DNA from: Thermoanaerobaculia bacterium
Lineage (GTDB): Bacteria > Acidobacteriota > Thermoanaerobaculia > Multivoradales > UBA5704
Assembly: GCA_035308185.1 (NCBI GenBank)
Contig: DATGHG010000502.1
Coordinates: 1 to 62,996 of the forward strand
DNA length: 62,996 nt
Direction: 5' to 3'
Positions 7,767 through 41,494 of the stretch are shown here, in pieces. The position numbers and the translations under genes are program-made. The notes under the pieces are model-generated. The model did no database searches. It was not told the origin of the DNA and worked only from the letters and a program-made list of their open reading frames with translations. Within the stretch, counting starts at the first letter, position 1. Each line of letters opens with the position of its first letter.

Positions 7767-7909
7767 GGCTGCGGACCCTCCAATTGCGCGCTGCGTTGGA
7801 CTGGCCGGCCCCACCGGGCAGCCGGGTGCGGCAGGGAAGCGCCGGGGCTGAATACGGCGCCACGCCCCGGGTGGATGCATCGGGCCGCTGCCGCGGCCTC
7901 CCGGTCCTG

Positions 7910-10684: not shown

Positions 10685-10785
10685 GGGCGTAGTGTATCCG
10701 CACCGCCAAATTTCGAGCCCCGATCCTGGATCGTGAATGCCGCCGGATGTGGGATTTGCGGCGCGGTGCACTAGCATCTTTGGCT

Positions 10786-12414: not shown

Positions 12415-12869
12415 GCCCACCAGCCTGTCGAACCCGACCCGACCCGGGCGGCTGGCGATCCGACTGTAACGCCAGGCTAGACCTCTAGAGGCGCCAGCGC
12501 CGTCCCCGCCAAGAGACGCGCGACCTGGCGCCAGACCTGCGCCGTCGCTGCTTCGGACCGGCAAACTATTCTCTGTAAGTCATTTAGGTCCTGGCGCGGG
12601 CAGTGGCACGGTTCTTGATTTATACCCCCTGCGGACGAGGAAAGACGTGATGACGAACCACCGCAAGTCGACGTCAGGCCACCCCCTCAACGCCCTCCCT
12701 CCGGCGGCAGGCCAGAGGAAGGGCTCGGCCAAGCCGGCTGCGCCTCGCTCATCCCGTCTTCCCCTCGCCCGGTAGCGCGCATCGACAGTCTCCTCTCCCA
12801 AGCGCCGGGGCGGGTCTCAACCCTCCACCCTCCCCGGCCACTTTTTTCTACCACCGTATAATCGTCGGT

Positions 12870-21241: not shown

Positions 21242-22178
21242 GACGGGTCCCTTCTCCCGCCGGGTTTTCCCGCGCCGGTTCGCGCTCGCGCGAACCGGCG
21301 GCCGGCGAAAATGTGCCAGCGGCGCCGGACGACGCGGCTCCTGAGGTCGCGCCGGCTGATGCCGCGGTCGCGGCGGCCGGGCCGGGCGCCGTCCCGCCGG
21401 CTTTTCCCAGCTCCTGCCGCAGCGCCTTGCCGGCCAGCCGGGTGACGTAGGTGGTGACCGCGATCGTCGCCAGCAGCCCGACCGCCAGCAGCGCCCAGGA
21501 GGCAGCCTTCGACTGACCGCCGGCCGCCGGCGCGGCGGCGGCGCCGCTGCCGGAGAACGCCGCGGCGAGGCTGCCCGCCGCCTTGCCGTAGTAGACGTAG
21601 AGCAGGGTGCCGGGCAGCATGGCGATGGAGGCGGCGAAGTAATCGAGGAAGCGCACGCGGGTGAGGCCCAGGGCGTAGTTGAGCAGGTTGAAGGGAAACA
21701 CCGGCGACAGCCGCAGCAGGGCGACGATCTTGAACCCCTCGCGGCCGACGGCGCGGTCGATGGCCTGAAAGCGCGGGTTGCCGGCGATCCGGTGCTCGAC
21801 CGCGCCGCGCGCCAGGTAGCGCGAGACCAGGAACGCGAGCGACGCCCCGAGGGTGGCGCCGACCAGGGTGTAGGCGGTGCCGTAGACCAGGCCGAACAGC
21901 GCTCCCGCCGCCAGCGTCAGCACCGCGCCGGGAGCGAAGGCGACGGTCGCGGCGGCGTAGCCCAGGATGAAAACCACCGGCCCCCAGATGCCGAGCCCTT
22001 GCACCCAGGTGGCGAACCGCTGCAAGGGGCCGATCAGGGTGCGGCCGCCGAGCACCAGCACGGCGACCGCCGCCAGCCCGACGACGGCATAGAGCACGAG
22101 CCGGAGGCGCGAGGTGCGGCGCCGCTCGCCGGGACCGGCGGCAGGCGTGGCGCTGGGGTTGGCGGGCATTTCCGGCAT
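21234..22178 (-). CDS. TVP38/TMEM64 (DedA-related) family membrane protein
   Basis: LAAGALFGLVYGTAYTLVGATLGASLAFLVSRYL and LRLSPVFPFNLLNYALGLT. Overlaps the downstream oxidoreductase by 8 nt, a pairing known from other bacteria. Confidence 0.85.
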   Translation of the reverse strand: MPEMPANPSATPAAGPGERRRTSRLRLVLYAVVGLAAVAVLVLGGRTLIGPLQRFATWVQGLGIWGPVVFILGYAAATVAFAPGAVLTLAAGALFGLVYGTAYTLVGATLGASLAFLVSRYLARGAVEHRIAGNPRFQAIDRAVGREGFKIVALLRLSPVFPFNLLNYALGLTRVRFLDYFAASIAMLPGTLLYVYYGKAAGSLAAAFSGSGAAAAPAAGGQSKAASWALLAVGLLATIAVTTYVTRLAGKALRQELGKAGGTAPGPAAATAASAGATSGAASSGAAGTFSPAAGSREREPARENPAGEGTRHA

Positions 22179-22424
22179 GAGCGAGGCTCCTGATCCCTGA
22201 TCTCGGATTCCTGATCCGGATTCCTGATCTCGGACTCCTGATCCCAGATCCCAGATCTCGAATCGCGGTTCATCTCACGGCTACGTGGCCCGCCGGCCGG
22301 ATGGATGGGCGGCGGCCGGCGCCCGGGGCGGCGCGTGAAACCCGGCCATGGCCTTTGACGATGCCATCTTAGCCGAGTCGAGGCGCCTGATGACGCCGGC
22401 GCGGTGCACCACGGATTGTGCATT

Positions 22425-22440
22425 TGGCGCATGTTTTGCC
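22425..22440 (+). promoter_or_regulatory. Candidate sigma-54 (-24/-12) promoter of glnA
   Basis: TGGCGC-ATGTT-TTGCC compared with the consensus TGGCAC-N5-TTGCW. It lies about 83 nt upstream of the glnA ATG. An imperfect palindrome TGCAC-N8-GTGCA lies at 22405-22422. Confidence 0.6.
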
Positions 22441-22522
22441 TGCCATTTTGACGAAATGGTGGTTGCGCTCGGGCGTAAGAGGCCCTATAGTCTGCGCAAC
22501 AGTCACATTCATGGAGACAGCG

Positions 22523-23851
22523 ATGAAAAAAGAGGAAATCCTGAAGGCTGCTGACGGGGAGGCGGTCCGCTTCATGCGGCTTCAGTTCACGGACATCCTG
22601 GGAATCATCAAGAACGTCGAGATCCCGCGCAGCCAGTTCGAGAAGGCCCTGGACGGTCAGATCCTGTTCGACGGCTCGTCGATCGAGGGCTTCACCCGCA
22701 TCGAAGAGTCCGACATGCTGCTGGTGCCGGACCTCAACACCTTCCGGGTCAACCCCTGGTCCAACCCGGACGGCTCGAAGGTGGCGCGGATGATCTGCGA
22801 CATCTACCTGCCGGACGGTTCGCCATTCGCGGGTTGCCCGCGGATGACGCTCAAGCGCCAGGTCGACCGCGCCAAGCAGCACGGCTTCACCATGGTGGCG
22901 GGACCCGAGGCGGAGTTCTTCCTCTTCCAGAAGGACGCCAAGGGCGACGTGTTGATCGAGACCCACGACGTCGGCGGCTATTTCGACCTGACGCCGGTGG
23001 ACCGCGGCGAGGAGTGCCGGCGCGACATCGTCATCGTGCTGGAGGCGATGGGTTTCGAGGTGGAGGCGGCGCATCACGAGGTGGCGCCGGGCCAGCACGA
23101 GATCGACTTCAAGTACGCCGACGCGCTGTCCACCGCCGACAACGTCACCACCTTCCGCTTCGTGGTCAAGCGGGTGGCCCAGGACCACGGCCTGCACGCC
23201 ACCTTCATGCCGAAGCCGATCTTCGGGGTCAACGGCTCGGGCATGCACGTCCACCAGAGCCTGCTGACCAAGGCCGGCGAGAACGCCTTCTACGACGCGC
23301 AGGCGCAGTGGCAGCTCTCCAAGGTGGCGCTCAGCTACATCGCCGGCATCCTCGATCACGCGGTGGGGTTCGCGGCGGTGACCAATCCGCTGGTCAACTC
23401 CTACAAGCGCCTGGTCCCCGGTTACGAGGCGCCGATCAACGTCGCCTGGTCGGAGAAGAACCGCAGCCCGCTGGTACGGGTGCCGGCCAAGCGCGGCATG
23501 TCCACGCGCTGCGAGGTGCGCATGCCGGACCCCGCCTGCAACCCCTACCTGGCGCTGGCGGCGATGCTGGCGGCGGGCCTCGACGGCCTCGAACGCAACC
23601 TCGAGCCGGGCGCGCCGGTCAACAAGAACATTTTCACCATGAGCGCCCGTGAGAAGCGCCGCCTGCGCATCGCGCAGCTGCCGGCCAACCTGAGCGAGGC
23701 GCTCGACGAGCTCGAGCAGGACAGCGTCGTCCGCGGCGCGCTCGGCGACCACATCCTGGAGCACTACCTGCGCGCCAAGCGGCAGGAGTGGGCCGACTAC
23801 ATCTCGCACGTCCACCCCTGGGAGCAGGAGCGCTATCTGTCGGAGTACTGA
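22523..23851 (+). CDS. glnA: Glutamine synthetase type I
   Basis: [84 protein letters not shown]. An alternative ATG is at 22511. Confidence 0.95.
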
Positions 23852-23872
23852 GTTGCGCGGCCTCGGGGAGAG

Positions 23873-25060
23873 GTGATCTACTTGCGCGCCGTGTTGCCGC
23901 GCGATCCGATCCTGCCCTTCTCCAGGCCCGACATTGGCGAGGAAGAGATCGCCGAGGTGGTGGACTGCCTGCGCTCCGGCTGGATCACCACCGGGCCGCG
24001 GGTGGCGCGGCTCGAGAACGAGTTCGCGGCGGCGGTGGGCGCCCGGCACGCCCTGGCCTTCTCGTCCGGCACCGGCGCGCTCCACGCCACGCTGCTCGCC
24101 CTGGAACTCGAGCCGGGCGACGAGGTGGTGGTGCCGGCGCTCACCTGGCCCTCCACCGCCAACATGGTGGTGGCTTGCGGCGGGGTACCGGTGTTTGCCG
24201 ACATCGACCCGTCGACCTGGAACCTCGACCCGGCGGCGCTGGCGGCGGCGGTCGGCCCGCGCACCCGGCTGGTGATCCCGGTACACTTCGCCGGCCTGCC
24301 CTGCGATCTCGATGGATTGCGCGAGGCGCTGGCGGCCGCCGGCAGGCCCGAGGTCGGCATCCTCGAAGATGCCGCACACGCCGCCGGCGCCGCCTACAAG
24401 GGCCGGCCGATCGGCGCCGCCGCGGCGAACGGCACGCTGGCGGCCATTTTCTCGTTCCACCCGATCAAGAACATGACCACCGCCGAGGGCGGCATGGTGA
24501 CCACCGACGACGACCGGCTGGCCGCCGCGATCAAGCTCTGGCGCTTCCACGGCGTGCAGCGCGATGCCTGGCAAGCCTATGCCGCCACCGCGAAGGCGCC
24601 GGCCGGCTACGACGTGGTGCTGCCCGGATTCAAGTACAACCTGAGCGACCTCCACGCCGCGCTGGGCCTGCACCAGCTGCGCAAGCTGCCGGGGTTCAAC
24701 CGCCGCCGGGCGGAGATCGCCGCGTTCTACCGCCGCCACCTGTCCGACCTGCCGGGGTTGCAGATCCCGGGGCGGGCGCAGTACGAGTGCCACCATCCCT
24801 GGCACCTGTTCACCGTCCTGCCGCCCAGCCGCGCACCGTTCATGGAGCGGCTGCGCGAGCTCGGCATCGGCACCGGCCTGCACTTCGAGGCGGTGCACCT
24901 GCACGACTACTACCGCCGCCGCTTCGGCTGGCAGCCGGGCTCGCTGCCGGTCGCCGAAGAGGTCTGCGCGCGCATCGTCTCGCTGCCGCTGTTCCCGGCG
25001 ATGACCGACGACGACGCCGGCGACGTCGTCCTGGCGGTGCGCCAGGCGCTCGCCGCATGA
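23873..25060 (+). CDS. arnB: DegT/DnrJ/EryC1-family aminotransferase (UDP-4-amino-4-deoxy-L-arabinose aminotransferase-like)
   Basis: LPFSRPDIGEEEI, WITTGPRV, FSFHPIKNMTTAEGGMV (PLP-binding Lys). Lies in arn context. The start may be GTG 23891 (better RBS spacing). Confidence 0.85.
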   Translation: MIYLRAVLPRDPILPFSRPDIGEEEIAEVVDCLRSGWITTGPRVARLENEFAAAVGARHALAFSSGTGALHATLLALELEPGDEVVVPALTWPSTANMVVACGGVPVFADIDPSTWNLDPAALAAAVGPRTRLVIPVHFAGLPCDLDGLREALAAAGRPEVGILEDAAHAAGAAYKGRPIGAAAANGTLAAIFSFHPIKNMTTAEGGMVTTDDDRLAAAIKLWRFHGVQRDAWQAYAATAKAPAGYDVVLPGFKYNLSDLHAALGLHQLRKLPGFNRRRAEIAAFYRRHLSDLPGLQIPGRAQYECHHPWHLFTVLPPSRAPFMERLRELGIGTGLHFEAVHLHDYYRRRFGWQPGSLPVAEEVCARIVSLPLFPAMTDDDAGDVVLAVRQALAA

Positions 25061-26079
25061 GCGCGTCGTCCGCCACCGCGGGCAGCTCGCCGCCGGTGGC
25101 TTCGATCGTCATCCCGGTGTTCGACGAGGAGGCCAACCTGGCGGCGCTGTACGCCCGCCTGGCGCCGGTCATGGACGGCATCGCCGGCGGCGCCGAGGCG
25201 ATCTTCGTCGACGACGGCAGCGCCGACCGCTCGCTCGAGCTGCTGCGCGGCCTGGCGGCGGCGGACCCGCGGGTGCGGGTGATCTCGTTCAACCGCAACT
25301 ACGGCCAGCACGCGGCGGTCATGGCCGGCTTCGAGGTCACCCGCGGCGAAACGGTGGTGACGCTCGACGCCGATCTGCAGAACCCGCCCGAGGACATCCC
25401 GAAGCTGCTGGCCAAGGCGGCGGAGGGCTTCGACGTCGTCGGCGGCTGGCGCGCCGACCGCAGAGACACCTGGTTCCGCCGCTGGGCGTCGCGGCAGGTC
25501 AACCGCATGATGCGGCGCGTCATGGCCGGCGTCGAGCTCCGCGACTATGGCTGCATGCTGCGCGCCTACTCGCGGCCGGTGGTCGAGTCGCTGCGACGCT
25601 GCGAGGAGCGCACGCCGTTCATCCCCGCCCTCGCCTGCCAGTTCGCCCGCCGCATCGCCGAGGTGCCGGTCGGGCACGCCGAGCGCGCCGCCGGCGCCTC
25701 GAAGTACTCGCTCTGGCGGCTGCTGCGGCTGCAGGCCGACCTGATGACCGGCTTCACCTCGATGCCGCTACGGTTGGCGACGCTGGCCGGCACCGTGATC
25801 TCGCTGCTGTCGATCGGCTTCGGCGTCTTCCTGGTCATCCGGCGCCTGCTCCAGGGCCCGGAGGCCGAGGGCCTGTTCACGCTCTTCGCCATCCTGTTCC
25901 TGCTGGTCGGGGCGGACTTCCTGGCGCTCGGCGTGCTCGGCGAGTACGTCGGCCGGATCTACGTCGAGGTGCGCCGCCGGCCGCGCAGCGTGGTCAAGGA
26001 AACGATCAACCTCGCCCCCGCGGCCCCTGCGGCCCCCGACGCGGCTCCCGCGGTCCCTGCGGGCGGAGCCGGGCGTTGA
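25057..26079 (+). CDS. arnC: GT2 undecaprenyl-phosphate 4-deoxy-4-formamido-L-arabinose transferase-like
   Basis: The ATG overlaps the arnB TGA (ATGA). VSIVIPVFDEEANL, FVDDGSAD, SFNRNYGQHAAVMAGF, LDADLQNPPEDI, and C-terminal TM helices. Confidence 0.85.
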   Translation: MSASSATAGSSPPVASIVIPVFDEEANLAALYARLAPVMDGIAGGAEAIFVDDGSADRSLELLRGLAAADPRVRVISFNRNYGQHAAVMAGFEVTRGETVVTLDADLQNPPEDIPKLLAKAAEGFDVVGGWRADRRDTWFRRWASRQVNRMMRRVMAGVELRDYGCMLRAYSRPVVESLRRCEERTPFIPALACQFARRIAEVPVGHAERAAGASKYSLWRLLRLQADLMTGFTSMPLRLATLAGTVISLLSIGFGVFLVIRRLLQGPEAEGLFTLFAILFLLVGADFLALGVLGEYVGRIYVEVRRRPRSVVKETINLAPAAPAAPDAAPAVPAGGAGR

Positions 26080-29048: not shown

Positions 29049-29077
29049 TTGACAGGAAAGATCTCCCATGCTAACTT
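29049..29077 (+). promoter_or_regulatory. Candidate sigma-70-type promoter of the TIR/ATPase pair
   Basis: TTGACA (29049-29054), a 17-nt spacer, then TAACTT (29072-29077). It lies 34 nt upstream of ATG 29111, in an AT-richer gap. Confidence 0.4.
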
Positions 29078-29110
29078 ATGTAAAGCCTACTCTATATCGG
29101 AGCGTGCGGC

Positions 29111-29719
29111 ATGCCCTGTGTGTATCAGCACGATTTCTTCGTCAGCTACTCGCATATCCCTGGGGTGAACCTGCTCAGCGAGTTCGTCGCCGAGCTCGTC
29201 AGAGAGATCCGCTATCAGCGAGTCGGCGATCGACTGGACGAGCCGGTTTACCTGGATCGACAGCGCCTGCAACCAGGCTTCGTTTGGAAAAGCGAGCTAT
29301 CGAGGGCGCTGTGCCATAGCCGCTGCATGTTAGCGATCTACACAGATGACTATTTCTCACGTGACTATTGCATCCGCAAGTGGGACGCCATGGTCACTCT
29401 CGAGACCCAGCGGATCGGTGGCACGTCTCGCCGCATGATCATTCCGATTCTGCTGCGCTGCGCCAATGATCAGGGCGAGCCGGCGCTCCCCGCGCGGATG
29501 CGCGAGCTCCAGTACGAAGATTTTCGCTCCATCGTGGCGCCAAAGCAGCAATTCGCCACCATCAAGACAAAGAACAAGGTGGCGACGTTGCTCAGACGCA
29601 TCGATGACCTGAAGCGTCGCTCCAAGGATCCCAGCGTGGACTGCGACAGCTTCGAGGCTTTCCTGGTTTCTACTCCTCAGCCGGCCCCCGCGGAGGCCTT
29701 CGGCGGGAGCTGGGGCTGA
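29111..29719 (+). CDS. TIR-domain protein (202 aa)
   Basis: The beta-A signature DFFVSYSH sits at residues 8-15. BB-loop-like YLDRQRLQPGF. Beta-C/alpha-C region CMLAIYTDDYFSRDYCIRKW. Composition is lower in G+C than the flanks. Confidence 0.8.
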   Translation: MPCVYQHDFFVSYSHIPGVNLLSEFVAELVREIRYQRVGDRLDEPVYLDRQRLQPGFVWKSELSRALCHSRCMLAIYTDDYFSRDYCIRKWDAMVTLETQRIGGTSRRMIIPILLRCANDQGEPALPARMRELQYEDFRSIVAPKQQFATIKTKNKVATLLRRIDDLKRRSKDPSVDCDSFEAFLVSTPQPAPAEAFGGSWG

Positions 29720-29724
29720 CATTC

Positions 29725-32214
29725 ATGGCAGAGGAGACAGCCGCATCGAGCGCCAGGCCCGGCGAGATCATCACCTTCTACTCCTACAAGGGTGGCACGG
29801 GCCGCTCGATGGCTGTGGCCAACGTCGGCTATATTCTGAGCAAGGGTGCTGTCTTGCCTCGTGGCGTGCTGCTCATCGACTGGGATCTGGAAGCGCCGGG
29901 TCTGCATCGCTACTTCGCGGATCGCTTCCAAAAAAAACTTTCATTAGTAACAGGCATCGATCAAAAACCAGGGTTGATCGATTTCTTTGTTGCCGCAGAC
30001 GCTGCGTACAAAAAGGCGGGATCCACCGTAGTACAGGGAGGCGCCGAGTCGACGGGTAACTCCGAACAGCAGCGTTCGATCTTGGATGCTGACCCGTACG
30101 CGGAGGTGCGCGCAGCGGTACTCGCAAGCCTCGTGGATTTCGTGCTTCCCGTTGATGACCAAGGCCTGTTTCTGCTCAAGGCCGGGAAATTCGACGTCAC
30201 CTATCCCGACCGCATCCGGGAGTTCGACTGGGAAGGGTTTCACCGCCGCGACCCACGCTTTTTTGGCGACTTGCGCTTGTCCCTGATGGCGCGCTACGAT
30301 TACGTGCTGATCGACTCGCGCACTGGCCTCACCGACACCGCTGGCATCTGTGCACAGCAGATGCCCGAGAAGTTGGTGCTGGTCTTCGTCCCCAACCACC
30401 AAAGTCTTGACGGAGTATTGGATGTGGCGCGGAGGGCGCGCCGGCATCGGCTTGGCTCGTCAGACCTGCGGCCGTTGGTGAGCTTTCCCCTCGTGTCGCG
30501 GATCGATGGCAAGGCCCAGCGCCTGCGAAACACCTGGCGCAGGGGCGGCACGACTGCGACGGAGGCCGTGACCGGCTATCAGAAGCTCTTCGAGGATCTG
30601 TTTATCGAGATCTACGAGTTGGACGAATGTGATCTCGAGGCGTATTTTGACACCACCCAGATCCCTCACGAGAGTGAATTCGCTTATGGCGAACAAATTG
30701 CGGCGCGTGCTGGGACGACCGACAACCTCTCCCTCGGATACTCCTATGCCAACTTTTCGCGCCGCCTTACGACTCTCGCGGCCCCGTGGGAACCGTTGCC
30801 GGAAGAGCAGGAGCTCGAGGAGGTCAAGCGCTCCGCGCGCGTCGAGACCGCCCTGGCGTTGAGGAAGACCAGGATCGTGCGCTGGATCAGTGTTGCCGCG
30901 ACCGTCGCCGCGCTGATAGCCGCGGCGCTGGTCGTTGGGAGCAGTCGCAAGGCGAATGTCGAGCACCTGCGGGCTGAGAAGGTTCTCTCAGCGGTTGCCG
31001 CTTCGCCTGACCCGCTGGAAAAGGCACTCTTGCTTGGCGAGCTTCAGGATGCGGAGGAGCCACCAGGAGGGCTCGCCGTGGCTAGGGAGGTTGCCTCGAC
31101 GCCGCTGCCGGCAGCCGTTCTTGGCGGAGCCTCGAGAGCGATCTCAGGCATTGCCTTCTCGCCCGCTGGCGACCGCATCGCTGAGCTGGCCGGCGATCAG
31201 ACTGTGCGTTTATTCAAGGCTGATGGCACCGGAGACCCGGCGCTCTCGCAGGTAAAGGGTGATATAGCCACCGTTTTCGCGTTCAGTACCACCGGGCAGC
31301 TCTTGGTCGTGGGCGCCGCCGACGGCACTGTGAGTACGCTGCCGGCCGCCGGGGGAGTTACCACACTGCGTGGGCGCGTAGACGGGCCAATTCTAGCGGT
31401 GTCATTCGATACTGGCGACAACCAGGTGCTGGTGGCGACAGGACAAGGCGTCACGACCATTGACCAGGCGGGTAAGGCGCAGAATCCTTTTCCGCCAACA
31501 GCCTTGACCGGCTGCGATTTTGCTCCTCGAGCCAATCGTATGGTCGCCATTAGCGAGGGCGATAGGGTCGTCACCTGGGATTTGTTGAGTCCCGACCTCG
31601 TCGATGAAGGGATCATGATTCGCAAGGCGGCTGGAACCGGATTGCTCCTCTCGGACGATGGACGGCTGCTGATCACCAGCACTCCTGAAGGCACTGCGCT
31701 TTGGGAGCTAACGCCCAACGGCATCAAGAAGGAGCTCTTCGGCTCGGTGAAGCGAGCAGGCGATGCCTTCGCGCTGAGTCCCGATGGTCGACTTTTCGCC
31801 TACCCCGCTCCCGACGGCTCTGTCGTCGTGCGCACGGTCGACAGCCTTCGGTCGAATGATCCGACGGGTAAAGGATGGCAACTTCGCGGGCAACGGGCGC
31901 CGATTCGGGCCATGGCCCTCAACAATTTGCATCAACTCGTCACTGGCGCTGAAGACGGTTCAACCTGGGTCTGGAATCTCAACGCAACCTACAATGGGAA
32001 TCTTGGATGGTCGGCGACTCTCGACTATTTGCGCCATGCGAGCACGGCCTGCCTGTCGGTCAGCCAGCGCAAGCGGCTGCTTACCGAGTCCGACGTCGAC
32101 GCCGTGGAAACCGCTGCGCGCTGCGAGCAAGGACACGGCCGCACTCCACTCGGCTCTGCCGCCGTCGGTACACGCTTCAACCCCACGAGTGGAGCGCCGC
32201 GCACCGGAAATTGA
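29725..32214 (+). CDS. ParA/MinD-like (SIMIBI) ATPase with a KGGTGR deviant Walker A, one TM helix and a seven-blade WD40-like beta-propeller
   Basis: IITFYSYKGGTGRSMAVANVG, LLIDWDLEAPGL, YDYVLIDSRTGLTD. TM helix WISVAATVAALIAAALVVGS at about 30883-30942. Seven blades, e.g. IAFSPAGDRIAELAGDQTVRLF .. LVTGAEDGSTWVWNL. Starts 5 nt after the TIR gene stop. Confidence 0.85.
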   Translation: MAEETAASSARPGEIITFYSYKGGTGRSMAVANVGYILSKGAVLPRGVLLIDWDLEAPGLHRYFADRFQKKLSLVTGIDQKPGLIDFFVAADAAYKKAGSTVVQGGAESTGNSEQQRSILDADPYAEVRAAVLASLVDFVLPVDDQGLFLLKAGKFDVTYPDRIREFDWEGFHRRDPRFFGDLRLSLMARYDYVLIDSRTGLTDTAGICAQQMPEKLVLVFVPNHQSLDGVLDVARRARRHRLGSSDLRPLVSFPLVSRIDGKAQRLRNTWRRGGTTATEAVTGYQKLFEDLFIEIYELDECDLEAYFDTTQIPHESEFAYGEQIAARAGTTDNLSLGYSYANFSRRLTTLAAPWEPLPEEQELEEVKRSARVETALALRKTRIVRWISVAATVAALIAAALVVGSSRKANVEHLRAEKVLSAVAASPDPLEKALLLGELQDAEEPPGGLAVAREVASTPLPAAVLGGASRAISGIAFSPAGDRIAELAGDQTVRLFKADGTGDPALSQVKGDIATVFAFSTTGQLLVVGAADGTVSTLPAAGGVTTLRGRVDGPILAVSFDTGDNQVLVATGQGVTTIDQAGKAQNPFPPTALTGCDFAPRANRMVAISEGDRVVTWDLLSPDLVDEGIMIRKAAGTGLLLSDDGRLLITSTPEGTALWELTPNGIKKELFGSVKRAGDAFALSPDGRLFAYPAPDGSVVVRTVDSLRSNDPTGKGWQLRGQRAPIRAMALNNLHQLVTGAEDGSTWVWNLNATYNGNLGWSATLDYLRHASTACLSVSQRKRLLTESDVDAVETAARCEQGHGRTPLGSAAVGTRFNPTSGAPRTGN

Positions 32215-32250
32215 TCGCTCGGGGCAATGCGCCGCAAGCCTGCGCCACCT

Positions 32251-32433
32251 CGCAGCATGGCCGGCAGTACCAGGGTCCAGGGCAGGTAGGCGGCGGCGCC
32301 GGCCGGCAGGTAATACCAGAACGTTTGCCGGTGGCTGAGGGCGCGGCCGGCCTCGGTGGCGAGCAGCCGGTCGACGGTATTGCCGATCAGGCACTCGCGC
32401 AACGCCCGGTGGCGATGACGAACGGCGAGGCCT
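32251..32433 (-). pseudogene. arnT-derived fragment (internal segment fused out of order to the arnT 3' tail)
   Basis: 32251-32406 aligns by eye to arnT 34026-34181, with about 16 mismatches in 156 nt (ALRECLIGNTVDRLLATEAGRAL..). It is joined directly and out of frame to a 28-nt exact copy of arnT 33171-33198. Confidence 0.7.
32406..32433. repeat. Left copy of a 28-bp perfect direct repeat (CCGGTGGCGATGACGAACGGCGAGGCCT)
   Basis: The identical 28-mer recurs at 33171-33198. The two copies bracket vapBC. Confidence 0.9.
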
Positions 32434-32468
32434 GAGTGCCCAAGGCGGGGATATGTTAAAATGCTTTT

Positions 32469-32729
32469 ATGAGGACGACTTTGGAGTTGCCTGACGAGTT
32501 GCTCAAGCGCGCAAAGATCGCGGCTGTCGAGCGGGGCATGACGCTGCGTGAGCTGATCGGGTCCGCTCTCGCCCGGGATCTGGCGGCGGGGGCATCGCCG
32601 CCCAGGGGAAAGAGGATTCAGTTGCCGGTTTTCCCGTCGGCGCAACCAGGCAGCCTCGAGCTGACCAACGCCGATCTCGCACGTTCCGAGGCCGACGAGG
32701 ACCGGCGGCGGCATGGGCTACCTGGCTGA
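32469..32729 (+). CDS. vapB: VapB-family type II antitoxin
   Basis: MRTTLELPDELLKRAKIAAVERGMTLRELI is the typical VapB/DUF2191-type N-terminus. Overlaps the PIN gene by 17 nt. Confidence 0.75.
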   Translation: MRTTLELPDELLKRAKIAAVERGMTLRELIGSALARDLAAGASPPRGKRIQLPVFPSAQPGSLELTNADLARSEADEDRRRHGLPG

Positions 32730-33141
32730 CGTCAACGTCCTGATCGCGCTCCTGCACGCCCGCCACGCCCTGTCCGAGCGGGCGCTTGCCTGGCTGGACC
32801 GGCAGGAGCAGCCGGGCAGCATCTGCCTCTGCCGTGTCGCCCAGATGGGTGTCCTGCGTATCCTCACCAACCCGGCCTGGCTGGGTCTGGAGGCCCAATC
32901 TCCGGCCGCGGTTTGGGATGCGTGGGATTTCCTGTTGACCGACGAGCGCTTCATCCGAGCGACGGAGCCGGTCCGCCTCGACTCGGAGTGGCGCCTGGTG
33001 ACCAGGGACTTGCCTGCCGGGCGAAGCGCCGATACCGACTCCTATTTCGCAGCCTTTGCGCGCGCCGGAGGATATCGCCTGGCCACCTTCGACCGCGGCT
33101 TCCGGCTCTTCCGGGGCCTCGACGCGGAAATCATCGAATGA
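32713..33141 (+). CDS. vapC: PIN-domain toxin (VapC family)
   Basis: YLADVNVLIALL (N-terminal Asp), TDSYFAAFARAGGYRLATFDRGF (C-terminal Asp). Its 3' end overlaps the arnT 3' end by 11 nt. Confidence 0.8.
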   Translation: MGYLADVNVLIALLHARHALSERALAWLDRQEQPGSICLCRVAQMGVLRILTNPAWLGLEAQSPAAVWDAWDFLLTDERFIRATEPVRLDSEWRLVTRDLPAGRSADTDSYFAAFARAGGYRLATFDRGFRLFRGLDAEIIE

Positions 33142-35155
33142 GCTGGGCGCCGGCCCGATTGGCGCCATCGCCGGTGGCGATGACGAACGGCGAGGCCTTG
33201 GTGGCGGTCTCGTCATAGAGCAGCCGGAGCCGCGCACGCAGGGGCGCCGGCAGGTGGCGCAAGGCGTCGAGCGACAGGACCAGCCGATCCGCGGGCTGGG
33301 TGGAGAAGAGTGCGGCAACCTCGGCGGGGCTGCTCAGGGAGCGAACCTGGCGGCCGAGGTCGAAACCGATGATGCCCAGGGTGGTCTCGCTGGGGCGGTA
33401 GGCGGCCACCGGGGCGGTGCCGGGATCGAGGCGGGCGACGGCGGCGGTCAGGTCGTGAGGGCTCTTGAGCGGTTCGATGGCGGCTTTGACGGCGATCTGG
33501 TAAGCAAGGGCGATGGTGAGGAAAGGCAGCACCAGCCAGGCTCCTGCCGGGGTGGTGGCGGTGCGCAGATGGCGCGCGCCGCGGCAGAGGAGCAGAGCGG
33601 CGACGGCGACCGCGGCGAGGCCGGCGGCGGCAAGGTGGGTGCCGGTCAGCTCGGCGCGCAGGGGGGCGGCCGGGAAGGAGCGCCAGACGCCGCGCCCCGC
33701 CCCCCAGGCTCCCAGCCATAGGGTGGGTGGCAGGAAGGCCGCCAGGGTCAGCAGCAGCAGGGCGGTCGGCCGGTCCCAGCGCGAGCGCTCGGCGCGGCCC
33801 AGCCCGTCCAGCCAGAGGCCCAGCGGCACCGCCAGGGCGGGCAGCAGCGGCACCAGGTAGAGCGAGCGCTTGCTGGCGGCCAGCGACAGCAGCAGGACCC
33901 CGATCAGGCTGGACGCGAGAAGCAGGCGGCGTCCGCTCTCGGCGCTCTGGCGGTGGGCTGGGGCGCAGGCCCCGGCGACGGTCAGCCCGATGGGCCGAGT
34001 TGCCGGCGATGGGTCCGCACGGCTTCGCAGCATTGCGGGCAATGCCAGGGTCCAGGGCAGAAAGGCGACGGCGCCAGCCGGCAGGTAATACCAGAACGGC
34101 TGGCGATGGCCGAGGGCGCGCCCGGCTTCGGTGGCGAGCAGCCGGTCGACGGTATTGCCGATCAGGCATTCGCGCAACGCCGCCCAGCCGCCCTCGCGCA
34201 GCAGGGCCAGGGCCCACGGCAACACCACGGCCGCGAACAGCGGCACCGCGAGGAGCGCCAGCGGCGCCAGCAGGCGCACGGTTCCAGCAAACCCCCGAGG
34301 CTCGGGTCCTGCAAGCCTTCGACGCATGGTTGCGGCAAATCCTCGCGGCTCGGGGCCGGCAGGCCTTCGACGCATGGTCCCGGCAAGACCTCGGCGCATC
34401 GCTGCCGAGCCCTCGGCTTTGCCGGCCGGGCGCGTCCGCGCGCGGCCGGCGGCGGCTCCCGCCAGCAGCAGGTAGAGCACCGGCGGTCCCAGGGTGAGCC
34501 CGATCCCCACCACCCCCTTGGCGAGGAAGGCGAGCGGCACGGCCAAGGCGATCAGCAGGTAGGCGCCCCAGCGTTCCGCGCCGGCACCGCGGCCGCCGGC
34601 TTGCCTGAGGGTCCCGCCGGCGTCCCGGCCGTCGCTCACCAGCAGGACGAAACCGGCGTAGGCCAGGGTCACCATCAACACCAGCGGCGGATCGACGATC
34701 GCCCGCCCCATGTCCTCGCTGAACTCGACGGTGGCGGCCAGGGCGCCGGCCGCCAACCAGCCGGCCCGCGCGCCGCCGAGCCGCCTGGCGACGGCGAAGG
34801 TGACCAGCAGGGTCAACGTCGCGAACAGCGCCGACGGCACCCGCGCCGCGGCGTCGGAGACGCCGAACAGCCGGAAGGACACGGTCTGCGCCCACCAGGC
34901 GAGCGGCGGCTTTTCGAGGAACGGGCGGCCGTTCAGGCGCGGCACGACGAGGTCGCCGCTGACCCACATCGCCTTGCCGATCGCCGCATCGCGCGGCTCG
35001 TCCGGGGTCCACAGGGAGTGCGAGCCGATGCCGGCGAACGACACCGCCGCCGCGGCCAGGGCGGCCAGCGCCAGCGCCGCCAGCCGTGCCCGCCTCGATT
35101 CCCCGGCCGGCTTCACGTCGCTCCTGCCGACCGGCGCTGCCTGGCCGCGTGACAC
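33131..35155 (-). CDS. arnT: GT39/GT83-type 4-amino-4-deoxy-L-arabinose (ArnT/PMT_2-like) glycosyltransferase
   Basis: HSLWTPDEPRDAAIGKAMW, RLNGRPFLEKPPLAWW, and multiple TM helices. Convergent with arnBCAD. Contains a 48-nt tandem repeat in a loop. Confidence 0.8.
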   Translation of the reverse strand: MSRGQAAPVGRSDVKPAGESRRARLAALALAALAAAAVSFAGIGSHSLWTPDEPRDAAIGKAMWVSGDLVVPRLNGRPFLEKPPLAWWAQTVSFRLFGVSDAAARVPSALFATLTLLVTFAVARRLGGARAGWLAAGALAATVEFSEDMGRAIVDPPLVLMVTLAYAGFVLLVSDGRDAGGTLRQAGGRGAGAERWGAYLLIALAVPLAFLAKGVVGIGLTLGPPVLYLLLAGAAAGRARTRPAGKAEGSAAMRRGLAGTMRRRPAGPEPRGFAATMRRRLAGPEPRGFAGTVRLLAPLALLAVPLFAAVVLPWALALLREGGWAALRECLIGNTVDRLLATEAGRALGHRQPFWYYLPAGAVAFLPWTLALPAMLRSRADPSPATRPIGLTVAGACAPAHRQSAESGRRLLLASSLIGVLLLSLAASKRSLYLVPLLPALAVPLGLWLDGLGRAERSRWDRPTALLLLTLAAFLPPTLWLGAWGAGRGVWRSFPAAPLRAELTGTHLAAAGLAAVAVAALLLCRGARHLRTATTPAGAWLVLPFLTIALAYQIAVKAAIEPLKSPHDLTAAVARLDPGTAPVAAYRPSETTLGIIGFDLGRQVRSLSSPAEVAALFSTQPADRLVLSLDALRHLPAPLRARLRLLYDETATKASPFVIATGDGANRAGAQLIR
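33171..33198. repeat. Right copy of the 28-bp perfect direct repeat (inside the arnT 3' coding end)
   Basis: Identical to 32406-32433. On the minus strand it encodes ..KASPFVIATG.. of ArnT. Confidence 0.9.
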
Positions 35156-38333: not shown

Positions 38334-40343
38334 ATGTCCGAGCCCAATGGTTCCGATCGCATCGTGAGCTGCGCCATCCATCCCTCGATCGGCATCGCCC
38401 GGGTGGGCAACGCTCCGGAGGATTTCTTCCTGGCGCCGGAGGTGCCGGGAGCGGCGCCCGATCCGGGAGCGCCGGGGTTCAAGACCGCCAAAGGGGAGGT
38501 CAAGCGCGAGGCGGTGCGCTTCCGCGTCTATGGCTACGACGCGGCAGGGCGGGTGGTCCGGGAGCTCACCGCCGACGATGCCGCCATCCAATGGCAGGCG
38601 CATCTCGCCAATCGCAAGGCGGCCTGGTATCAGTTCAACAACGCGCTCGACCTGAAGCAGTACGCGATGCCGAGCGCCTTCCGCAACTCCGCGATCACCG
38701 GCGTGCTCCGCGAGCAACTGGTGATCGATCCCGGGCCGAAGGAGATCTCCGGACGGAACCGGCATGGCGCGCGGTACCGCTGCGATCAGGGCTACGTGAA
38801 CTTCAACGCCGGCAACGGGCCGCATCAGGTGCCGCTGGGCGAACTGCGGACCGACGAGCAGGGGCGCCTCATCGTCCTGGGTGGCTTCGGCAAATCGGCG
38901 TCGGACAGCGGCTCGCCGGCGACGACGTTCGCCAACAACGACGGCTGGTACGACGACGTGTCGGATGGGCCAGTGCGAGCGCGGGTGAAGCTGGCGGACG
39001 GCCGCGTGCTCGAGGCCGCGCCGGCGATGGTGGCGGTGACGCCGCCCAATTTCGGCCAGGGCCTCTACGGCGCGGTCACCATGTACGACGTGGTCTACGA
39101 CCTCTTCCTGCGCCAGGGCTGGCTGGCGCCGCCGGCGCAGCTGCGGTTCTGGGACGACATCTACCCGCTCTTCGAGCGGCTGGTGGGCAACCAGTGGGTG
39201 AGCGAGGGGATGTTCTTCCTATTCGGCGCCGGCTCGCCGAGCGACCTCACGGAGCCGGCGCTGCTGGCGCGCCTGGCGAGCCCCGATGCGGCGCACCGCG
39301 AGGAGCGGGAGTCGCTCTGCCGGTGGTTCCGCAAGCCGCCGCCGCCCTGGGACGCCCCCGGCGAGCGGGCGCAGCTGCCGCCGCCCCGGCATGCCAAGCT
39401 GCCGCCGTTCTATGGCGACGGCGTCGATTACCAGACGACCACGATCTACGACCTCGCCGTCACCACCACCCAATACGACTGGTTGCAGCGCTGGGCGGCG
39501 GGAGATTTCGTTCCCGGCGAGCGGCGGCCGGCGCCGCGCCGCCTCGACGAGATCCCGCTGCAGGAGCAGCCGGCGGCGCTCGACCGCGCACCGCTCGAGA
39601 GCTGCCTGGGTGGACCGTTCCACCCCGGGATCGAGCTGACCTGGCCGATGCGGGTGCCGGCGATGTGGCAGCGGCCGGACCCGCTGCCGTTCCGGCTCAA
39701 CATCCTGCCGCCGGACCGCGAGCCGCGTGACGACTTCGGCACCATCCTGACGCCGGCGATCGCGCTGTCGGTGGAGGGCCCGTGCGCGGCCAGCGGCCCC
39801 CGCACGCTCACCCGCTGGATGGGCGTGCCATGGCAGACCGACGAGGCGAGCTGTCTCGACGGCTACGACACCTCCACCTACCTGCCGCTGCCGTCGTTCT
39901 GGGCGGCGCGGGTGCCCAACGAGGTGCTGAGCCTGGAGTCCTTCGAGCGGCTCGGCGCGGCCGAGCTGCCGGAGCTGCAGCGCACCAAGCACCTGGCCTA
40001 CCGGCAGTTCTGGCTGCGCGACCTGATCAAGGGGGCGGGCAGCAGCTACCAGGGGCGCATCAACAACATGGTGAAGCAGTGGCACCTGCTGGGAATCGTC
40101 GCCGAGCATCCCGCGCCGGCGGCGGCCGAGGTTCCGGGCTGGCCGGAGCGCTACTGGGTCGAGAGCCAGCGCAGCCGGACGTTCAGCGCCAAGGATCCGA
40201 CCTGGCGCCAGACCCTGCGCGCCGAGCACGCGGTCGCGGACGACGAGGCGGCGCCTGCGGAGTCGGCGCTGCTCAGGAGCGTGGCCCCGGCCTCGGCGCC
40301 ACAGGAGGAGCCGCAGCACCCGGTCCGGCGCGACGAGCGTTGA
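38334..40343 (+). CDS. lodA: LodA/GoxA-family CTQ quinoprotein amino-acid oxidase
   Basis: IHPSIGIARVGN, HLANRKAAWYQF, LGELRTDEQGRLIVLGGFG, DGWYDDVSDGPV, CLGGPFHPGIELTW, WMGVPWQTDEASC. Strong AGGAGGAGG RBS. Confidence 0.85.
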   Translation: MSEPNGSDRIVSCAIHPSIGIARVGNAPEDFFLAPEVPGAAPDPGAPGFKTAKGEVKREAVRFRVYGYDAAGRVVRELTADDAAIQWQAHLANRKAAWYQFNNALDLKQYAMPSAFRNSAITGVLREQLVIDPGPKEISGRNRHGARYRCDQGYVNFNAGNGPHQVPLGELRTDEQGRLIVLGGFGKSASDSGSPATTFANNDGWYDDVSDGPVRARVKLADGRVLEAAPAMVAVTPPNFGQGLYGAVTMYDVVYDLFLRQGWLAPPAQLRFWDDIYPLFERLVGNQWVSEGMFFLFGAGSPSDLTEPALLARLASPDAAHREERESLCRWFRKPPPPWDAPGERAQLPPPRHAKLPPFYGDGVDYQTTTIYDLAVTTTQYDWLQRWAAGDFVPGERRPAPRRLDEIPLQEQPAALDRAPLESCLGGPFHPGIELTWPMRVPAMWQRPDPLPFRLNILPPDREPRDDFGTILTPAIALSVEGPCAASGPRTLTRWMGVPWQTDEASCLDGYDTSTYLPLPSFWAARVPNEVLSLESFERLGAAELPELQRTKHLAYRQFWLRDLIKGAGSSYQGRINNMVKQWHLLGIVAEHPAPAAAEVPGWPERYWVESQRSRTFSAKDPTWRQTLRAEHAVADDEAAPAESALLRSVAPASAPQEEPQHPVRRDER

Positions 40344-41494
40344 GGCCGCAGGTGGCGATCGTGGGCGGCGGCCCCGCTGGCGCGGTCGCCGCCCTGGTCC
40401 TCGCCCGCCGCGGGGTGCGGGTCACCGTCCTCGAAGCGCGCCCCGCGCCCGCGGCGAAGCCCGGCGAATGCCTGCCGCCGAGCCTCACGCCGCTGCTGCG
40501 GCGGCTGGGGCTGGACGACCTGCTCGCCGCGGACGGCCATCTGCGCTCCCACGGCAATCGCTTCGTCTGGGGCGCGGCGGCACCGGGCGAAAGGTCATTC
40601 CTCGCCGGGACCCGCGGCGACGGCTGGCACGTCGACCGCCGCCGCTTCGAGGCGCGGCTCGCCGAGCAGGCTTGCGCCGCCGGGGCCGAGTGGCGATGGG
40701 GGTGCCGCGTCGTGCGGTGCGTCCGCGGCGAGGCGGCATGGCGGCTAGAGATCGAGGCAGGCGGCCGGCGACAGGAGCTGGCGGCGGCACTTGTCGCCGA
40801 CGCCACGGGCCGCCCGGCGCGCCTCGCCCGCCGCCTGGGGGCGCGGCGCCTGCGCTACGACCGCCTGGTCGGGGTCGCCGGGCTGCTGGCGAGCGCCACG
40901 CCGGCGGCGGACTCCTACACGCTCGTCGAGGCGACGCCGGAGGGATGGTGGTACACGGCGCTGCTCGCCGACGGGCGGCTGGCGGCGGCGGTCTTTGGCG
41001 ACGGCGACCTGCTGCCGCGCCCGCTGCTCCATCCGGCGAGCGCCGCGGACCTGTGGTGGCGGCTGCTGGGCGCGACGTCGGCGACGCGCGAGCGGGTGGC
41101 GGGACATGGATACCGGCAAGCCGATCTGGTCTTGCAGGTGGTGCCGGCGGAGAGCTCGCGCCTGGACGTCATCGCCGGGGAAGGCTGGCTGGCGCTCGGC
41201 GACGCGGCGGCGGCCTACGATCCCCTCTCCTCCCACGGCATCGGTTCGGCGATGGGCTCCGGCTTCTACGGCGGGCAGGCCGCCGCCGACCTGCTGGCCG
41301 GCCGCGACGAGGCCCGGCCGGCCTACCTGGAGCTGATGCAGAACGCCTATGGTGCCTACCTGGATCTCCAGCGCCGATGCTACGCCCAGGAGCGGCGCTG
41401 GCCGGAGGCGCCGTTCTGGCGCCGGCGGCATGATCCGGCGTACTGCCTGGCACCCTTAGGGGGCGACCCGCCGGATCGGGCTCAGGCTTCCTGA
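40340..41494 (+). CDS. lodB: LodB/GoxB-like FAD-dependent flavoprotein (CTQ-biogenesis partner)
   Basis: VAIVGGGPAGAVAALVLARRGVRVTVLE (dinucleotide fold), GEGWLALGDAAAAYDPLSSHGI. Start is TTG 40340 or GTG 40352, overlapping or abutting the lodA stop. Confidence 0.75.
   Translation: MRPQVAIVGGGPAGAVAALVLARRGVRVTVLEARPAPAAKPGECLPPSLTPLLRRLGLDDLLAADGHLRSHGNRFVWGAAAPGERSFLAGTRGDGWHVDRRRFEARLAEQACAAGAEWRWGCRVVRCVRGEAAWRLEIEAGGRRQELAAALVADATGRPARLARRLGARRLRYDRLVGVAGLLASATPAADSYTLVEATPEGWWYTALLADGRLAAAVFGDGDLLPRPLLHPASAADLWWRLLGATSATRERVAGHGYRQADLVLQVVPAESSRLDVIAGEGWLALGDAAAAYDPLSSHGIGSAMGSGFYGGQAAADLLAGRDEARPAYLELMQNAYGAYLDLQRRCYAQERRWPEAPFWRRRHDPAYCLAPLGGDPPDRAQAS

Follow-up and report, generated by a model that had tools for sequence, protein, structure and literature searches.

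TIR (Toll/interleukin-1 receptor) proteins encoded beside ParA/MinD-like ATPases of the KGGVGR-motif variant type have been recorded in bacterial genomes before, and computational catalogues already list the ATPase domain, the FxsC-like TIR and the association between the two, as uncharacterised entries. In the homologous pair FxsC/FxsT of the FxSxx-COOH locus, the TIR-like gene lies immediately 5' of the gene for the KGGVGR-variant protein; the corresponding NCBIfam models, NF040588 and TIGR04276 (FxsC) and NF040586 (FxsT), are catalogued without a function. FxsT has been described as an AP-ATPase, an "inactive MinD/ParA-like domain" has been reported next to TIR/AP-ATPase genes, and VMAP ternary systems have been listed as having MinD/ParA-like domains among their modules (Kaur et al. 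2020, PMC7159879). In the literature we found nothing on KGGVGR as a protein family, on the candidate system PDC-M28, or on defence by a MinD- or ParA-like ATPase together with a TIR protein, and the paper of Doré et al. 2024 on diversity-generating retroelements (DGR) makes no mention of the KGGxGR family. Here we describe a two-gene element in a stretch of 62,996 nucleotides (hereafter the window), a contig of a Thermoanaerobaculia (Acidobacteriota) metagenome-assembled genome (MAG; GCA_035308185.1, contig DATGHG010000502.1). Gene 1 (29111-29719, plus strand) encodes a stand-alone TIR protein of 202 aa, and gene 2 (29725-32214, plus strand) an 829-aa membrane protein with a ParA/MinD-like NTPase domain, one transmembrane helix and a WD40 propeller. 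The pair is a transmembrane, WD40-bearing variant of the catalogued TIR-NTPase conflict cassette.

The open reading frame (ORF) calls reproduce exactly the coordinates that a first-pass annotation of the window had given for two co-directional genes, with a gap of 5 nt between the TGA at 29717-29719 and the ATG at 29725. NCBI labels gene 1 (HLX10991.1) as a TIR-domain protein and gene 2 (HLX10992.1) as a "hypothetical protein". That annotation had also called the pair an undescribed module, which does not stand: an NCBIfam model of the ATPase domain exists (NF047398), FxsC/FxsT are homologous, Kaur et al. 2020 had noted the domain, and the PADLOC candidate PDC-M28B is a remote relative.

Comparison with described systems

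The relation to Fxs loci can be read from profile scores. At the Streptomyces locus L072, the upstream gene matches FxsC_Nterm at 232 bits and FxsC_Cterm at 168 bits, and the downstream gene matches AAA_KGGVGR at 138 bits and FxSxx_TPR at 1,035 bits; by these scores, the Streptomyces members of the cassette are the FxsC/FxsT pair of the FxSxx-COOH locus. In contrast, gene 1 of the window, a remote relative of the FxsC N-terminal domain, reaches 63 bits where the FxsC_Nterm cut-off is 130 and lacks an FxsC_Cterm match, and gene 2 carries a transmembrane helix and WD40 repeats where FxsT has its FxSxx_TPR region, with no match to NF040586 at E<=0.1 (cut-off 300 bits). No Radical_SAM (FxsB) Pfam match is present among the called genes within ~10 kb on each side of the pair, a search that a small FxsA peptide could escape, and the sole CxxxCxxC ORF nearby (22037-25108) is a likely shadow ORF. 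Because both genes fall short of the FxsC and FxsT cut-offs and a radical SAM gene is absent, the window genes are remote Fxs relatives rather than members.

Other systems share parts of the design. STAND/NLR-like systems (Avs, bNACHT) also combine a repeat sensor, an NTPase switch and a TIR effector, and some relatives of gene 2 carry an nSTAND1 segment; we take the helical bundle, WD40 and Cys-helix module of gene 2 to resemble the sensor modules of bacterial STAND proteins. However, the NTPase of gene 2 has the SIMIBI ParA/MinD fold, the TIR is a separate gene, and the sensor is predicted to lie across the membrane. Compared with MinD/ParA themselves, gene 2 keeps the signature lysine, the switch-I D-x-D and the Walker B aspartate, but its family has an arginine in the P-loop and an extension of ~110 aa, and gene 2 has a real transmembrane helix instead of an amphipathic membrane-targeting helix. 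Thoeris likewise has two genes and a small stand-alone TIR, with the catalytic glutamate kept in our family as well; the pair nevertheless lacks a ThsA-type effector (SIR2/SLOG or Macro-type), PADLOC returned no Ths match, and among the NCBIfam models the sole Thoeris match was negligible (E=0.034), ThcB4 reaching 13 bits where 220 are required. The pair was also considered as a Thoeris, Avs/bNACHT, SEFIR or Argonaute-TIR system, and each of these identities was rejected, the PADLOC matches being marginal only. PDC-M28B aligns partially and at low score with the ParA-like core of gene 2 (58 bits) and of its relatives (58-86 bits), although no TIR partner, gene 1 included, matched the PDC-M28A model; by these matches PDC-M28B is a remote relative of the gene 2 family. 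Two likenesses concern layout. Toll-like receptors (TLRs) offer a functional analogy only, with repeats that sense outside the cell, a single transmembrane helix and a cytoplasmic module driving TIR signalling, and PknB-type receptor kinases have a large cytoplasmic N-terminal domain, a transmembrane helix and an extracellular sensor. Homology to either is limited to the TIR fold, and the window TIR is a separate, enzyme-type protein.

Conserved and co-evolving pairing

The TIR/ATPase pairing is conserved, and the two proteins co-evolve. Relatives of gene 2 were collected in a word-indexed homologue search (>3,179 matches, the top 120 of which provided the domain counts), in an exhaustive search over representative sequences at 50% identity (1,742 proteins; E<=1e-30) and in a scan of one genome per species, in which at least 596 species genomes carry a relative. 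For 82 loci, six-frame ORFs were annotated with a phmmer search for the ATPase and an iterated hidden Markov model (HMM) of the TIR. A co-directional TIR ORF ends -80 to +150 nt from the start of the ATPase domain in 81 of the 85 ATPase ORFs at these loci; one of the four unpaired ORFs lies at a contig edge and another has a fused TIR only. The paired loci span Acidobacteriota, Cyanobacteria, Burkholderiales, Bacteroidota, Planctomycetota, Actinomycetota and others. Pairwise distances among the TIRs follow those among the ATPases (Mantel r = 0.77, compared with a maximum of 0.10 in 999 permutations), and 38 of the top 120 homologues, roughly a third, carry TIR_2 fused C-terminal to the ATPase as Rosetta-stone fusions. 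The upstream TIR is present even where the ATPase protein has a C-terminal TIR of its own. The functional coupling proposed by the first-pass annotation is thereby strengthened, with the TIR gene as the conserved 5' neighbour. A phmmer search from gene 1 linked only 1 of the 120 homologues' TIRs fused in relatives, the sequences being too diverged.

Each of the three closest relatives (55-59% identity) has a 203-204 aa TIR gene directly upstream. Some flanking genes are common to P0001 and P0004, and the neighbourhoods of P0002 and of the window are wholly different. Throughout the family the layout is fixed, with the ATPase domain (~350 aa) first and a variable module after it: besides TIR_2, the top 120 homologues have an nSTAND1 segment (11), TPR (7), WD40 (5), FGE-sulfatase (5) or protein kinase (2-3) modules. 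When flanking ORFs were clustered, with shadow ORFs removed and related genomes collapsed, no third gene family recurred in more than 6 of ~68 lineages, and the unit is therefore a two-gene cassette. A conserved third component in the form of FxsA/B, a cNMP-binding regulator or a small transmembrane protein was considered and dropped, as none occurs in more than 6 lineages.

Several loci depart from the simple pair. Three of them (L054, L067 and L076) hold two KGGxGR-ATPase genes. Those of L067 lie on opposite strands; those of L054 and L076 are in tandem, and there the fused TIR of the first ATPase gene serves as the "upstream TIR" of the second. The duplicates at all three loci are local paralogous expansions. 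Six lineages (L012, L023, L026, L030 at 7376-7915, L034 and L038) have a predicted membrane protein of ~180 aa directly downstream of the ATPase gene, which is TIR-fused in those checked, and this protein may be an accessory effector of the TIR-fused subtype. Another six (L016, L018, L024, L055, L056 at 10555-12654, and L082) have a ~700-aa protein with a TIR-like N-terminus near the cassette, to which flanking MAP3K_TRAF_bd and TPR-S Pfam matches may belong and which may represent a separate, co-located conflict system. In a Thermoanaerobaculia relative, a gene with cNMP-binding (PF00027) and DUF1003 domains lies directly upstream of the TIR gene (L004:6219-7094), an echo of the cNMP-sensing regulators noted for some Fxs-type loci (Kaur et al. 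2020, PMC7159879).

The KGGxGR NTPase domain of gene 2

The N-terminal part of gene 2 (residues 14-357; 29764-30795, plus strand) is a ParA/MinD-like NTPase domain of the KGGVGR-motif variant, predicted to be cytoplasmic and modelled at a predicted local distance difference test (pLDDT) score above 90. It passes the NCBIfam model NF047398 (AAA_KGGVGR) at 115 bits over residues 14-237 (cut-off 90) and carries a conserved, family-specific C-terminal extension of ~110 aa. The best solved relatives are the archaeal MinD proteins of P. furiosus and P. horikoshii, in an alignment that pairs KGGTGRS with KGGTGKT, IDWDLE with VDGDLT, and YVLIDSRTG with FILIDCPAG. The ParA/MinD-type NTPase with a KGGTGRS P-loop read by the first-pass annotation is thus borne out by both the profile and the MinD alignment. 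Gene 2 is nevertheless no MinD or ParA proper: it has GR for GK, it scores 30 bits against 202 for minD_arch and 15 against 213 for minD_bact, and it stays far below the cut-offs of the minD, ParA and EpsG models. No STAND NTPase (NACHT, NB-ARC or nSTAND) was matched by gene 2 in Pfam, NCBIfam or PADLOC, in agreement with the earlier suggestion that a SIMIBI-fold, ParA-like ATPase takes the place of the STAND NTPase.

The deviant Walker A motif, K22-G-G-T-G-R27-S28 (29788-29808, plus strand), keeps the signature lysine and replaces the P-loop lysine by arginine. KGGTGR[ST] is found in 116 of 120 homologues, and the other four, some of them apparently truncated at the N-terminus, have no motif match. 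In conservation alignments that include proteins ~32-57% identical to gene 2 over the full length, K22, G23-R27, D52, D54, D197-G201, N224, Q226, D247, R249, R259 and W271 are near-invariant. Within the nucleotide site, S198-R199 and G201 do not vary, and conservation is 90% or more at K22, G23-R27, S/T28, the switch-I aspartates D52 and D54 and the Walker B aspartate D197. Since these residues persist across diverged homologues, we read the site as being under selection for nucleotide binding. In P-loop NTPases, a change of this lysine to arginine usually spares binding and cripples hydrolysis. By analogy, the arginine predicts nucleotide binding with slow or no hydrolysis in gene 2.

Membrane topology and the WD40 propeller

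Downstream of the NTPase domain, the AlphaFold2 (AF2) model shows a continuous stalk helix (residues 359-405), the last 19 residues of which are strongly hydrophobic. The single transmembrane helix at its end (residues 388-406; 30886-30942, plus strand) has a Kyte-Doolittle score of 2.28, and agrees with the hydrophobic helix and membrane anchoring noted in the first-pass annotation. It is followed by a juxtamembrane helical bundle (residues 409-457; 30949-31095, plus strand) with the motif "DPLEKALLLGEL" common to gene 2 and P0004, and then by the propeller (residues 462-751; 31108-31977, plus strand), which is predicted to be extracytoplasmic. The propeller passes the Pfam WD40 model at 40 bits against a gathering threshold (GA) of 27, with several beta-propeller families also matching. 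The model has 24 strands over residues 462-751, and a Foldseek search with the full-length gene 2 model returned WD40 matches only, the best of them complete 7-bladed propellers at target-normalised TM-scores of 0.69-0.72. Seven blades, the number given earlier, are therefore most likely, although the moderate-confidence model alone would allow six or seven.

The C-terminal helices (32008-32133, plus strand; model helices 762-803) carry the motif W..LL.YLR..T.ACLS..QR..LL.E....ACE..GR with two conserved cysteines. The ACLSVSQRKRLL helix, recognised as a cap helix in the first-pass annotation, is native to the protein: it is kept, together with the second conserved cysteine, in 6 of 8 relatives of the same architecture. 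Read-through of gene 2 into a downstream gene scar was considered as its origin and rejected, as the motif is kept in relatives and the scar starts at 32250, past the stop codon. The two cysteines would be compatible with an oxidising compartment, which is only a hint.

If the propeller recognises a ligand in a conflict system, rapid divergence is expected. Propeller identity is 28-34% in protein pairs that share 57-67% identity in the ATPase, a divergence of the propeller about twice as fast.

Topology was surveyed across 319 family members, classified by transmembrane helices and fused TIR. Among the 84 members with a TIR fused behind the ATPase, 78 have no transmembrane helix in between, 5 have a two-helix hairpin, and P0192 has one helix plus a weaker second, so that on inspection the fused TIR never follows an odd number of helices (0/84). 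Conversely, none of the 80 members with one juxta-ATPase transmembrane helix has a TIR behind it; P0060, P0068 and P0117, for which the stringent threshold counted one helix, are two-helix hairpins according to inspection and a finer detector. By this pattern the TIR is always on the ATPase side, and the WD40, TPR and FGE-sulfatase modules are predicted on the opposite side. Flanking charge points the same way. Counted over 15 residues on either side of the helix, K+R are more numerous next to the ATPase in 52 of 70 single-helix members and less numerous there in 6 (means 3.54 versus 1.99 on the far side; Wilcoxon p=3e-9), a bias that under the positive-inside rule indicates an N-in/C-out protein. 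Gene 2 fits this pattern, with RKTRIVR preceding its helix. These statistics suggest that the propeller most likely lies beyond the cytoplasmic membrane, with the ATPase and TIR on the cytoplasmic side, a conclusion that is new here. Many relatives have no transmembrane helix.

One close relative has a different arrangement of these parts. P0002 (55% identical; L005:8001-10423), possibly a copy that has split or is decaying, has an ATPase gene that stops after the transmembrane helix at 440 aa and, ~590 nt further downstream, a separate ORF for a 170-aa WD40 fragment; 6 kb upstream, the locus encodes a group II intron reverse transcriptase (RVT_1 + GIIM).

The TIR protein and its E90K allele

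Gene 1 passes the Pfam TIR_2 model (PF13676) at 52 bits (GA 28). Its AF2 model, built on an 18-sequence alignment, has a pLDDT of 79.5 and a predicted TM-score (pTM) of 0.81, and Foldseek matched it to TIR structures only, led by RUN1, RPV1 and RPS4, which are NAD-cleaving plant TIRs, and followed by AbTir, MyD88 and SPARTA; the top match is the RUN1 E100A mutant. The TIR call of the first-pass annotation is thus secure. The ATG at 29111 is taken as the start because the N-terminus MPCVYQHDFF is kept in 15 of 17 close homologues. Beyond the TIR fold, residues ~140-202 form a long helix and a strongly conserved tail common to close homologues (DP.VDCDSY...FGG.W, at the very C-terminus), with which gene 1 may dock onto the ATPase protein.

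In the upstream-TIR family, the betaA motif F-x-S-Y, D49, G56 of the BB loop and E90 are each at least 95% conserved. Position 90 aligns with the glutamate of "ARELDGL" in Brucella TcpB/BtpA and of "QKELDGL" in PdTIR, starts the helix 85-101 of the gene 1 model, and is what we take to be the site of the catalytic glutamate of NADase TIRs. Glutamate occupies this position in all 98 relatives (81/81 other upstream TIRs and 17/17 close homologues), so that the family has the catalytic glutamate at the start of alpha-C that characterises NADase TIRs. In contrast, the window's gene 1 has lysine: codon 90 is AAG (29378-29380, plus strand), an E90K allele of a family-invariant residue.

Four other sequences of the same gene have GAG and hence Glu90, two from metagenome assemblies (L001:9654 and L002:4526) and two from further protein records (P0254 and P0255); AAG comes from the NCBI MAG contig. 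L002 differs from the window at a single base over 8,894 nt, the E90K base itself. L001 has 13 differences in 22,490 nt, of which only the position-90 base falls within the two genes, and gene 2 is identical across the window, L001 and L002. The change is either a consensus error of the MAG or a loss-of-function TIR allele segregating in a soil population, and it is unlikely that the lone difference would fall on the one catalytic codon by chance. From the residue replaced, the copy in this contig is probably an inactive TIR allele, which would fit relief from a costly effector, as a single observation. The TIR effector of the first-pass annotation is accordingly overstated for this copy, which may be inactive.

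Genomic context of the pair

An operon of the arn type, for modification of lipid A with aminoarabinose, has the pair between its arnD-like and arnT-like genes. On its 3' side the pair is followed by a composite arnT remnant, a VapB/PIN-VapC pair and the intact arnT. The G+C content is 0.575 at 29-30 kb and ~0.62 at 30-32 kb, compared with ~0.72 elsewhere. This is the window minimum, as the first-pass annotation had stated. The arnT remnant (32250-32438, minus strand) is a gene scar outside the system that marks the boundary of the islet, and is recognised by its identity to the intact arnT-like gene at 33131-35155: its piece 32250-32406 is 90% identical to 34025-34181, and its piece 32397-32438 is 86% identical to 33162-33203. 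The toxin-antitoxin (TA) pair at 32469-33141 (plus strand) consists of a VapB-like ORF (32469-32729) and a PIN/VapC-like ORF (32713-33141; PF01850). Both the TA cassette and the gene scar reported earlier are thus real. The VapBC-like pair is a neighbour only, as it is missing from the other cassette loci compared. The G+C dip and the insertion beside the arnT remnant indicate that foreign DNA was acquired horizontally and inserted into the arn operon, a context peculiar to this genome when the loci of the three closest relatives are compared. The islet holds the TIR/ATPase pair and VapBC only, within the arn operon. It is a small islet and not a defence island.

Upstream of gene 1, a weak promoter-like site (29049-29077, plus strand) combines TTGACA (29049-29054) and TAACTT (29072-29077) across a 17-nt spacer; the -10 hexamer fits at 3 of 6 positions and a consensus scan made no call, so the site is a lead only. 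The 42-nt arnT piece (32397-32438 / 33162-33203) brackets the VapBC cassette as a direct repeat, which suggests that VapBC inserted into the arnT 3' end or that recombination occurred there. Inside the arnT-like gene, tandem 24-nt repeats (48-nt unit; 34275-34394, minus strand) encode the repeated peptide MRRRPAGPEPRGFAATMRRRLAGPEPRGFAGT, which falls in a loop of the ArnT-like glycosyltransferase. At ~38334-41494 (L001:18610-21770), a few kb beyond the arn genes, a gene for a LodA-like quinoprotein amino-acid oxidase (LodA_N/LodA_C) is followed by one for a LodB-like flavoprotein.

Discussion

We put at about an even chance the reading that the two genes form a single unit, a copy of a widespread two-gene cassette for conflict, serving immunity or programmed cell death, in which a TIR enzyme works with a ParA-like membrane sensor-switch. 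In this reading the switch would be a single-pass protein, with a cytoplasmic NTPase, a stalk helix, a transmembrane helix, a helical bundle and, outside, a 7-blade WD40 propeller, an arrangement supported by the topology statistics. The propeller would bind a cue from the envelope or from outside the cell, such as a component of a phage or competitor or a sign of envelope damage, and the signal, passing through the stalk and transmembrane helix, would alter the way in which the ParA-like domains associate with one another in dependence on nucleotide. The signature lysine of ParA/MinD proteins reaches across an ATP sandwich dimer, and by analogy with these proteins we infer a dimerisation switch of this kind. 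The assembled cytoplasmic domains would then recruit or license the partner TIR, which would cleave NAD+, as depletion or as a signal, and bring about growth arrest or cell death. The fullest form of this proposal is an outside-in TIR receptor, in which an extracytoplasmic propeller controls ParA/MinD-like pairing and a licensed TIR NADase and which would be the first SIMIBI-class immune switch; it is possible, though less likely than not.

Several observations weigh against a conflict cassette sensing from outside. PADLOC recognised no named system in the window, and we found no experimental paper on any family member in the literature. The accessory defence islet of the first-pass annotation is weakened by the content of the islet here, the pair and VapBC in an arn operon, and by the flanking ORFs at 61 other loci, where location in defence islands finds weak support: about 8-10 of 121 match PADLOC defence models, a figure that has no control set. 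These matches are type I restriction-modification (R-M), DinG, PD-T4-6 and a few PDC candidates, a similar handful of flanking ORFs have conflict-system domains (TPR-S, patatin, nSTAND1 and extra TIRs), and the remainder are housekeeping-like. The phage collection has no copy of the cassette, and few plasmids carry one; the idea of a system borne by mobile elements or phages was accordingly rejected, with no phage match and only 8 plasmid records, mostly rhizobial megaplasmids. The window TIR has lysine at the catalytic-glutamate position. The propeller is modelled at moderate confidence (pLDDT ~45-85), and the full-length model is silent on complexes. The helical bundle, WD40 and C-tail module presumably resembles modules that are cytoplasmic in STAND proteins, so that the case for export of the propeller comes only from the transmembrane-helix statistics. 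Finally, the MinD/ParA-like domain has been predicted to be inactive (Kaur et al. 2020, PMC7159879).

Two alternatives survive to the same, low degree. The pair could serve non-antiviral outside-in signalling, such as envelope stress, kin or competitor recognition or developmental death, with the TIR modulating NAD+ metabolism. This would suit the predicted extracytoplasmic sensor, the mostly non-defence neighbourhoods, the connection with the Fxs peptide-maturation locus, the cNMP-binding gene next to the pair in L004, and the frequency of filamentous or social taxa (Streptomyces, Micromonospora, Cyanobacteria, Saprospiraceae and Kofleriaceae), an echo of Kaur et al. 2020. However, variable sensors joined to a TIR that keeps its glutamate are typical of immune systems, as are patchy occurrence and traces of horizontal acquisition, and relatives without a transmembrane helix must sense cytoplasmic cues, which makes this explanation an unlikely one.

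Similarly improbable is a nucleotide-independent scaffold, in which ligand-induced clustering of the membrane protein would gather TIRs without an NTP switch. TIR enzymes are generally activated by clustering, which counts for such a scaffold, and the canonical P-loop lysine is missing family-wide, in keeping with the published prediction of inactivity (Kaur et al. 2020). An eroded site would nevertheless lose its conserved residues, and conservation therefore speaks against a scaffold: the signature lysine, glycine-rich loop, S/T28, switch-I aspartate pair and Walker B aspartate are all at least 90% conserved.

A Thoeris-like order of events is more improbable still. Here the upstream TIR would make an ADP-ribose-derived nucleotide, the KGGxGR domain would be its receptor and the variable C-terminus the output. 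The TIR is indeed the invariant partner, the P-loop is systematically altered, and modules resembling enzymes (TIR, kinase, alpha/beta hydrolase) occur at some C-termini. Yet the commonest non-TIR C-termini (WD40, TPR and FGE-sulfatase) are ligand-binding or lectin-like with no obvious killing activity, the C-terminal module of the window variant is predicted to lie outside the membrane, and a stand-alone TIR would have no trigger. A housekeeping positioning ATPase of the ParA/MinD/BcsQ type beside an unrelated TIR gene, to which the automatic JGI name "cellulose biosynthesis protein BcsQ" and the position inside an arn lipid-A modification operon might point, is effectively excluded by the pairing in 81 of 85 ORFs in mostly unrelated neighbourhoods, the co-evolution, the fusions, minD, ParA and EpsG scores far below cut-offs, and an arn context found only in this genome.

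Returning to the conflict cassette, its reach is broad: the TIR + KGGxGR-ATPase pair occurs in at least 596 species genomes and ~1,700 clusters (50% level, E<=1e-30) across many phyla. New here are the topology inference, the ~2x divergence of the propeller and the E90K allele of the conserved TIR glutamate. The natural Glu/Lys polymorphism within one soil population would provide a ready active/inactive pair, and hints that the active allele is costly. An extracytoplasmic propeller, which is most likely, changes what the system could sense. If the pair is an immune or cell-death switch, ParA/MinD (SIMIBI) proteins would be a fourth class of NTPase controlling TIR effectors, and the long-catalogued FxsC/FxsT genes of actinomycetes would gain a function. 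Should the outside-in receptor prove true, it would be the first immune switch with a SIMIBI-class NTPase in place of a STAND, AAA+ or ABC ATPase, and a prokaryotic functional analogue of Toll-like-receptor signalling. With their single-transmembrane variants, bacteria would then sense threats outside the cytoplasmic membrane and answer them with a cytoplasmic TIR.

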